Shown here: in pieces, positions 40,445-40,663 of the stretch
Layout of the letters: the number at the start of each line of letters is the position of its first letter
Position numbering within the stretch: position 1 is the stretch's first letter
Virus record (IMG/VR): IMGVR_UViG_2703718850_000006
Span: 1 to 44,611 of that record
Strand: one strand, 5' to 3'
From: a virus
Taxonomy: Duplodnaviria > Heunggongvirae > Uroviricota > Caudoviricetes
Length of the DNA stretch: 44,611 bases
Notes under the pieces: model-generated
Told to the model about the DNA's origin: nothing
The model's database searches: none
The model's input: the letters and a program-made list of their open reading frames with translations, nothing else
Program-made: the position numbers and the translations under genes

Positions 40445-40663
40445 ATGGAGACATCAGCACGAAATAAAATGCAGAATGAGCCTGAGCAGGGGGGGGTAAT
40501 ACACGAAAAAGTAAGAGTGTTGCTAACCATTGAAAATGGGAAAGTAATTTACTCAAAACATCTGTTGGATAATGAATTCGTTGGTTGCATGGATACATTT
40601 CTGTGGATGGCAAAAAGAGCGGGTTACACGATTATTCCACCAGCAAAGGAACAAACATTATGA
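40445..40663 (+). CDS. hypothetical protein (72 aa) containing a G8 homopolymer
   Basis: ORF 40430..40663 trimmed to METSARNK start after GGGAGA; poly-G tract at 40489..40496; ATGA-coupled to next gene. Confidence 0.5.
   Translation: METSARNKMQNEPEQGGVIHEKVRVLLTIENGKVIYSKHLLDNEFVGCMDTFLWMAKRAGYTIIPPAKEQTL

Follow-up and report, generated by a model that had tools for sequence, protein, structure and literature searches.

Phase-variable or contingency loci built on poly-G/C tracts are known in Neisseria, Haemophilus, Campylobacter and Bordetella, and in Haemophilus influenzae lic1A and lgtC start codons are present in two frames upstream of the repeat. To our knowledge, Escherichia coli is usually regarded as being without simple-repeat contingency genes, and phage contingency loci have been described only recently and for virulent phages only. 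In the mga gene of Streptococcus pyogenes a C8 tract forms a reversible switch, and C6, C7 and C8 versions are found in databases (PMC10330708). A-runs in T2 agt and T4 rIIA have been identified as phage contingency loci (Gomez, Barrick and Waters 2025, PMC12633550), a paper in which polyG tracts of 7-11 in Fletchervirus receptor-binding genes are also cited as contingency loci (Sorensen et al. 2021, via PMC12633550). Described here is a run of eight G residues (G8) at the 5' end of gene L07 in the IMG/VR virus record IMGVR_UViG_2703718850_000006, which was analysed over its whole length of 44,611 nucleotides (nt; referred to as the window) and represents a lambdoid prophage with phages P27 and ASU11 among its relatives. 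The length of this tract varies among near-identical prophages, and it is probably a slipped-strand hotspot that gives rise to intact and broken L07 alleles.

The L07 tract resembles the bacterial poly-G/C loci and the mga C8 tract in that a mononucleotide run lies in the 5' coding region where a +1 or -1 change flips the frame, several lengths coexist in close isolates and in-frame gain or loss of residues is tolerated. It differs from them in that the run is short, G8 is strongly dominant, the gene belongs to a prophage and the locus was characterised by sequence comparison. With the T2, T4 and Fletchervirus loci it shares a phage homopolymer, which in those phages inactivates a non-essential gene by +1 or -1 frameshift and creates population diversity. 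Those are, however, virulent phages with their own polymerases, measured reversion rates and known selective trade-offs, whereas the L07 tract belongs to a temperate lambdoid (P27/ASU11-like) prophage, in which it is replicated mainly by the host's replisome and is subject to the host's mismatch repair. As in lic1A and lgtC, a second-frame ATG (40476) upstream of the tract makes the G9 and G6 states potentially translatable into the same protein core; unlike the start codons of those genes, it is without a Shine-Dalgarno sequence and may be fortuitous.

The tract comprises the last base of codon 15 (CAG), codons 16-17 (GGG GGG, Gly-Gly) and the first base of codon 18 (GTA) of L07 when counted from ATG 40445 (Table 1), and its placement in codons 15-17 by the initial annotation was essentially right. 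The same annotation had called the run unusual. No other G or C run of 7 or more residues is found within the 44.6-kb window, and dinucleotide-preserving shuffles gave a mean of 1.6 G8/C8 runs, with at least one run in 74 of 100 shuffles. Because the shuffles average 1.6 such runs per window, the presence of G8 alone is unremarkable, and the argument from an unusual run was dropped as having no statistical support in the window. What goes beyond chance is the comparative result, namely that tract length differs among near-identical relatives while adjacent A6, A7 and T6 runs are constant.

The tract was rebuilt in silico as G5 to G13 and the resulting open reading frames (ORFs) were compared. 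G5, G8 and G11 keep the L07 frame and encode 1, 2 or 3 Gly, G7, G10 and G13 give CAG GGG GGG TAA with an immediate stop, and G6, G9 and G12 are read through 13 more codons before a stop. At the simulated lengths every +1 or -1 change truncates the ORF, as had been proposed for a one-base indel. Translation from ATG 40476 would yield a product of 61-63 amino acids (aa; MSLSRG(G)VIHEK...), which matches in size the 62-aa proteins common in the family. This ATG may serve as a start, although no Shine-Dalgarno sequence is visible upstream of it. G7 and G9 carriers are annotated with no L07 ORF or with just a truncated or alternative ORF, and the out-of-frame states would be null or low for L07. 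Among relatives the annotation of L07 differs (77, 72, 64 or 62 aa, or none) by tract length and gene caller. The tract is in this respect a trap for annotation and typing, as the same prophage receives a 72-aa, a 64-aa, a 62-aa or no gene by tract length.

The evidence base for length variation consisted of the DNA of public assemblies together with exact-protein look-ups. In the DNA of relatives G7 was found at five loci (L010, L012, L014, L048 and L058), G8 at 20 non-redundant loci and G9 at four (L034, L049, L052 and L054). Loci reached via protein homologues carried G11 (L018 and L019), CAA+G10 (L017 and L020) or an interrupted G-A-G6 allele with the codons CAG AGG GGG (L021-L030). With a gapped DNA pattern, seven IMG/VR contigs were found to carry G8 and two to carry G7, and two G8 loci were located in metagenomes, one of which duplicated an IMG/VR contig and one of which was new; a scan of genome contigs returned no match. 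Five complete E. coli genomes carried G8 and one carried G7 (strain 95_0274, without an annotated coding sequence at that place). Exact look-ups placed the G8 products on 601, 638 and 16 contigs for the 72-, 64- and 77-aa calls, respectively, the G9-diagnostic 62-aa ORF on 28 contigs (NCBI-annotated, and also called in L039 and L054), and the G6-diagnostic ORF and the G5 product on 1 contig each, with zero matches to the G12 and G14 products. Anchoring on the constant downstream protein recovered G9 and G7 DNA directly. A 48-aa GTG-start ORF (P0062, E. coli DEC10F) was not used as diagnostic, since a frameshifted non-G allele would yield the same ORF. A comparison of independent isolates for G7/G8/G9 heterogeneity, which the initial annotation had put forward as a check, was positive, with G7, G8, G9, G11 and CAA+G10 seen in DNA and G5, G6 and G9 further backed by exact ORFs that no other tract length could give.

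Length differences were found between prophages that are otherwise identical or nearly so. Three G8 loci (L055, L056 and L057) are mutually identical over 14 kb, and over the same distance they are separated from a G7 locus (L058) by 0 substitutions and from two G9 loci (L049 and L052) by 2 substitutions. The sole differences between the window and loci L033 and L036 over 3.58 kb are +1 G and -1 G, and a contig of assembly GCA_001576205.1 matches the window without a difference over 13.95 kb. Phage ASU11 and E. coli 95_0274 are near-identical over ~13 kb with a single indel, the change from G8 to G7. Five different backbones carry G7 (those of L010, L012, L014, L048 and L058) and two carry G9 (the L049 clade and L054), and the independent events number at least five of -1 and at least two of +1. 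Control runs within 1.2 kb were constant, namely A7 (32 of 32 loci), A6 (48 of 48) and T6 (23 of 23). Features of a contingency locus are present in the form of a simple sequence repeat inside an ORF (G8 in the 72-aa ORF), a change of the L07 frame with repeat number (in silico only) and repeat-length polymorphism among close isolates above that of the flanking DNA.

Homopolymers are classic sites of indel error on several sequencing platforms, and G8 is the sole long G/C run in the window and hence the first candidate for a miscall. It might be argued from this that G7 and G9 are sequencing or assembly artefacts and that the true tract is G8 everywhere, more so as one G7 assembly (GCA_900479695.1) differs also at an A-run (A10 vs A9). 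However, the A7, A6 and T6 controls are constant in the same assemblies, no indel besides the tract separates ASU11 from 95_0274 over ~13 kb, and the G9-type ORF recurs on 28 contigs. G9 was found with the same two linked single-nucleotide polymorphisms in three independent samples (GCA_054244505.1, SRR2970202 and SRR9105561), and because of this recurrence the G9 state is regarded as inherited and not as noise. G11 and A+G10 differ by three bases and are found on many contigs (in the protein index, P0003 in 54 blocks). Recurrent, linked and 3-nt variants are therefore not explicable by sequencing error, and we consider a general miscall of the tract highly unlikely.

The run itself is far from universal. 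Most relatives (P27 and most E. coli prophages) have another leader that is 30 nt shorter (MEEKQQNITH...) and without a G run, the interrupted allele is common, and divergent long-leader alleles have G5 only. The initial annotation had named an invariant tract length and related prophages without the run as findings that would speak against its proposal; the first was not observed, as lengths vary among relatives, and the second applies in part. Across these alleles the G run as such is not conserved, and G5 in the divergent long-leader alleles suggests a stepwise in-frame growth from G5 to G8 to G11. In the common non-G allele of L07, the corresponding site is occupied by a run of A6 (CATAAAAAAGTAAGA). 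In locus L043 (positions 1340-1360; GCA_900479095.1), homologous to window positions ~40500-40512, this run is A5 and no L07 ORF was called, so that L07 is frameshifted there too, through a different run in another allele.

On balance, the explanation that we favour is a slipped-strand hotspot generating heritable ON/OFF alleles of L07, probably in a slow and incidental manner, and we hold it to be probable. Replication slippage, which we infer as the obvious cause of the length changes at this genuinely hypermutable site, would add or remove single Gs at G8 in the L07 5' leader and shift L07 between in-frame (G5, G8 and G11) and out-of-frame states, with the in-frame states encoding 1, 2 or 3 Gly in a putatively disordered leader. 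The L07 states are heritable and arose many times in natural E. coli lysogens, and the locus is in its mechanism like a contingency or phase-variable locus. Indel rates in E. coli climb exponentially with homopolymer length (PMC8510543). The pace at the L07 tract would most likely be slow, with changes on the timescale of lineages in E. coli with proficient mismatch repair, and a low switching rate is hinted at by the predominance of G8 together with the stable G9 clade. The tract probably arose incidentally as Gly codons expanded (G5 to G8 to G11) and did not evolve as a fast switch.

Several observations weigh against this explanation or limit it. Two findings speak against fast switching, the dominance of G8 among the protein counts and the clonal stability of G9. 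Most alleles are without the tract, a common one has it interrupted by a G-to-A change, and one G8 per 44.6 kb is expected by chance; because of these three facts there is no sign of selection keeping the run. The single G7 call of GCA_900479695.1 could be a platform error. Sampling was also biased in that protein look-ups under-detect out-of-frame states and retrieval anchored on the downstream gene collapses similar contigs. L07 and its downstream neighbour L06 were without assignable function in the searches given below, so no phenotype can be linked to the tract states. The on/off switch of the initial annotation is retained as far as recurrent intact and truncated L07 alleles are concerned; the term switch was not earned, given the predominance of G8, the stable G9 clade, the lack of the run in most alleles, its interruption in a common one and the expectation of one G8 per window by chance.

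An evolved, fast and reversible phase-variation switch for bet-hedging, with the tract kept by selection, was weighed as an alternative to the slow hotspot and is in our view unlikely. Under it L07 would be expressed fully with G8 (from the strong Shine-Dalgarno sequence at 40432-40436), at a low level with G9 (from ATG 40476) and not at all with G7, the switch may also modulate the ATGA-coupled downstream gene, and it would adapt the prophage or lysogen to fluctuating pressures such as host defences or superinfection. The tract does occupy a tolerant leader at the ORF's 5' end, and both +1 and -1 states recur, but most alleles are without the tract, the interrupted allele is common and the G9 clade is stable across samples. 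Similarly, the product of the alternative-frame ATG has 62 aa, the length of canonical family members, yet no Shine-Dalgarno sequence precedes ATG 40476. The presence of G5 and G11, both in frame, suggests a return to the L07 frame from out-of-frame intermediates; G5 and G11/A+G10 would fit such a passage and are equally possible as single 3-nt steps. Longer and more mutable G10 and G11 alleles exist, and contingency loci in phages now have documented precedents (PMC12633550), whereas eight Gs make a short tract for a host with proficient mismatch repair. Probable repression of the operon in lysogens, proposed by analogy with lambda pL and on the strength of the promoter-like site only, also argues against such a switch.

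A programmed ribosomal or transcriptional frameshift site producing a second protein from the same DNA was also considered, as G GGG GGG G is formally slippery for tRNA-Gly and the phage encodes a tRNA-Gly(UCC) of its own. The alternative frames stop after 0 or 13 codons, the sequence downstream showed no stimulatory structure, and the genotype itself varies, which accounts for the observations without recoding. No extended trans-frame ORF exists and for this reason programmed frameshifting was excluded; we would give it almost no weight. The anticodon of the tRNA reads GGA and GGG, and its match to the GGG GGG of the tract is possibly a coincidence.

For L07, 33 homologues were identified in the genera Escherichia, Salmonella and Citrobacter. 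They share an invariant core (I29 E30 N31 G32 ... P66), and the P27 L07 protein (P27p07) has 87% identity to the window protein across the core. Judged from these homologues, L07 is a real and conserved gene. ATG 40445 is the start chosen by the Prokaryotic Genome Annotation Pipeline in relatives, and an alternative ATG at 40430 gives a 77-aa L07 ORF. In the P27 record L07 (locus positions 1681-1884) and L06 (1824-2462) are annotated with a 61-nt overlap. In the AlphaFold 2 (AF2) model the leader, residues 1-20, which includes the tract-encoded Gly-Gly, has predicted local distance difference test (pLDDT) values of 52-66, followed by a beta-hairpin (25-39) and a helix (49-58). The tract is thus modelled within a low-confidence, non-conserved leader that tolerates 1-3 Gly. 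Searches of L07 against Pfam, PADLOC, PDB sequences and PDB folds (AlphaFold plus Foldseek) gave no match, and its PHROGs family is annotated 'unknown' only.

The initial annotation had further described an ATGA link between the 72-aa ORF and the gene downstream, which was confirmed, as the L07 TGA overlaps the L06 ATG. Its suggestion that an indel would uncouple the downstream gene is doubtful, because L06 has its own Shine-Dalgarno sequence (AAGGA, separated from the ATG by 9 nt), no stable local RNA structure occluding this sequence was found (z = 0.18), and the L06 protein is 100% intact and identical in G7, G8 and G9 carriers. RNA structure that would enforce L07-L06 coupling was rejected on the same z value, and any effect of the tract on L06 would be small. 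L06 had no Pfam, PADLOC or PDB-sequence match and no significant Foldseek match to PDB folds, and it falls in an 'unknown' PHROGs family.

The locus may also be set beside the frameshift pseudogenes of decaying prophages. As in those, an accessory gene is broken repeatedly at its weakest site, which includes the A6-to-A5 change of the non-G allele in L043. In contrast to decaying prophages, the remaining prophage, including L06, is intact and identical in the variants, and in-frame G5 and G11 alleles indicate that the frame was retained or restored and not progressively lost. One G9 carrier (L034, SRR9105561) has a 5-bp deletion at window positions 41480-41484, inside the gene for a 62-aa small membrane protein (41418-41606); this deletion upstream of the SPFH gene may represent further left-arm decay or an assembly artefact.

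The L07 region is the leftward early arm of the prophage, with all genes on the + strand. Past the promoter-like site the order is a helix-turn-helix protein, L08, L07, L06, the small membrane protein, an SPFH protein and DUF5406, and in related loci the arm goes on with a DUF4222 protein, an excisionase and an integrase.

Table 1. Positions of the L07 tract, its reading-frame landmarks and other elements in the window
Feature	Position	Strand	Basis or remark
G8 homopolymer, length-variable tract	40489..40496	+	letters GGGGGGGG, read directly
L07 ORF, 72 aa, phage P27 L07 family (phrog_340)	40445..40663	+	PHROG match, E = 1.8e-24
Shine-Dalgarno GGGAG, 8 nt upstream of ATG 40445	40432..40436	+	sequence
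+1-frame ATG, reads into L07 core when G6, G9 or G12	40476..40478	+	simulated lengths
TAA, in-frame stop for G7, G10 and G13	40497..40499	+	sequence and simulated lengths
TGA closing the shifted frame for G6, G9 and G12	40531..40533	+	sequence and simulated lengths
L06 Shine-Dalgarno AAGGA	40646..40650	+	sequence
L06 ORF, 193 aa, P27 L06 family (phrog_1515)	40660..41241	+	profile match; AF2 pLDDT 89.8
cI-like S24 repressor	38417-39109	+	
Intrinsic terminator after cI-like gene	39131-39149 plus T8		
Promoter-like site	39179-39207		after the cI terminator
Phage tRNA-Gly, anticodon UCC	27419-27491	-	
DNA methylase	27710-28756	-	flanks porin gene
Gram-negative porin gene, 368 aa	29612-30718	+	PF00267, E = 8e-152
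Antiterminator Q	30899-31282	-	flanks porin gene

A second variable run was seen at the head of this arm. T8-G-A8 occupies positions 39150-39166, following the cI terminator hairpin and ~13 nt upstream of a -35-like TTGACG at 39179, and its A-run (39159-39166) is A8 in the window and L053, A9 in L049, L050, L052 and L055-57, and A10 in L051 and L058, with all variants on near-identical 14-kb backbones. Lying at the UP-element position of the pL-like promoter, this run might tune the same operon.

The recurrent, natural on/off polymorphism of L07 occurs in a prophage family that includes Shiga toxin (Stx) converting phages and offers a tractable case for asking whether temperate phages bet-hedge by repeat slippage and what the L07 and L06 early genes do. 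A bolder proposal, which we regard as doubtful, is a working contingency locus in temperate lambdoid E. coli prophages, including yecE-integrated relatives of Stx phages, in which a growing poly-G tract (G5 to G8 to G11) and the second-frame ATG would provide heritable and reversible control of an early-left gene pair at three levels (full, low and off). If this were true, populations of lysogens or phages could hedge against pressure from host defence or superinfection, and the variable A-run by the pL-like promoter might tune the same operon.

Stx motifs were not detected in the window. In relatives stx lies near the position of the porin gene, which in the window is flanked by genes for antiterminator Q and a DNA methylase. 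Beyond the prophage integrase (locus positions ~14000-20500 in L049-L058) identical prophages adjoin different islands, which carry a second integrase with resolvase/ParB, a 1526-aa protein, P4-like Psu/Ogr or a two-component system. From these differing islands it follows that the carriers are different host strains or that the attachment region is a hotspot for tandem elements.
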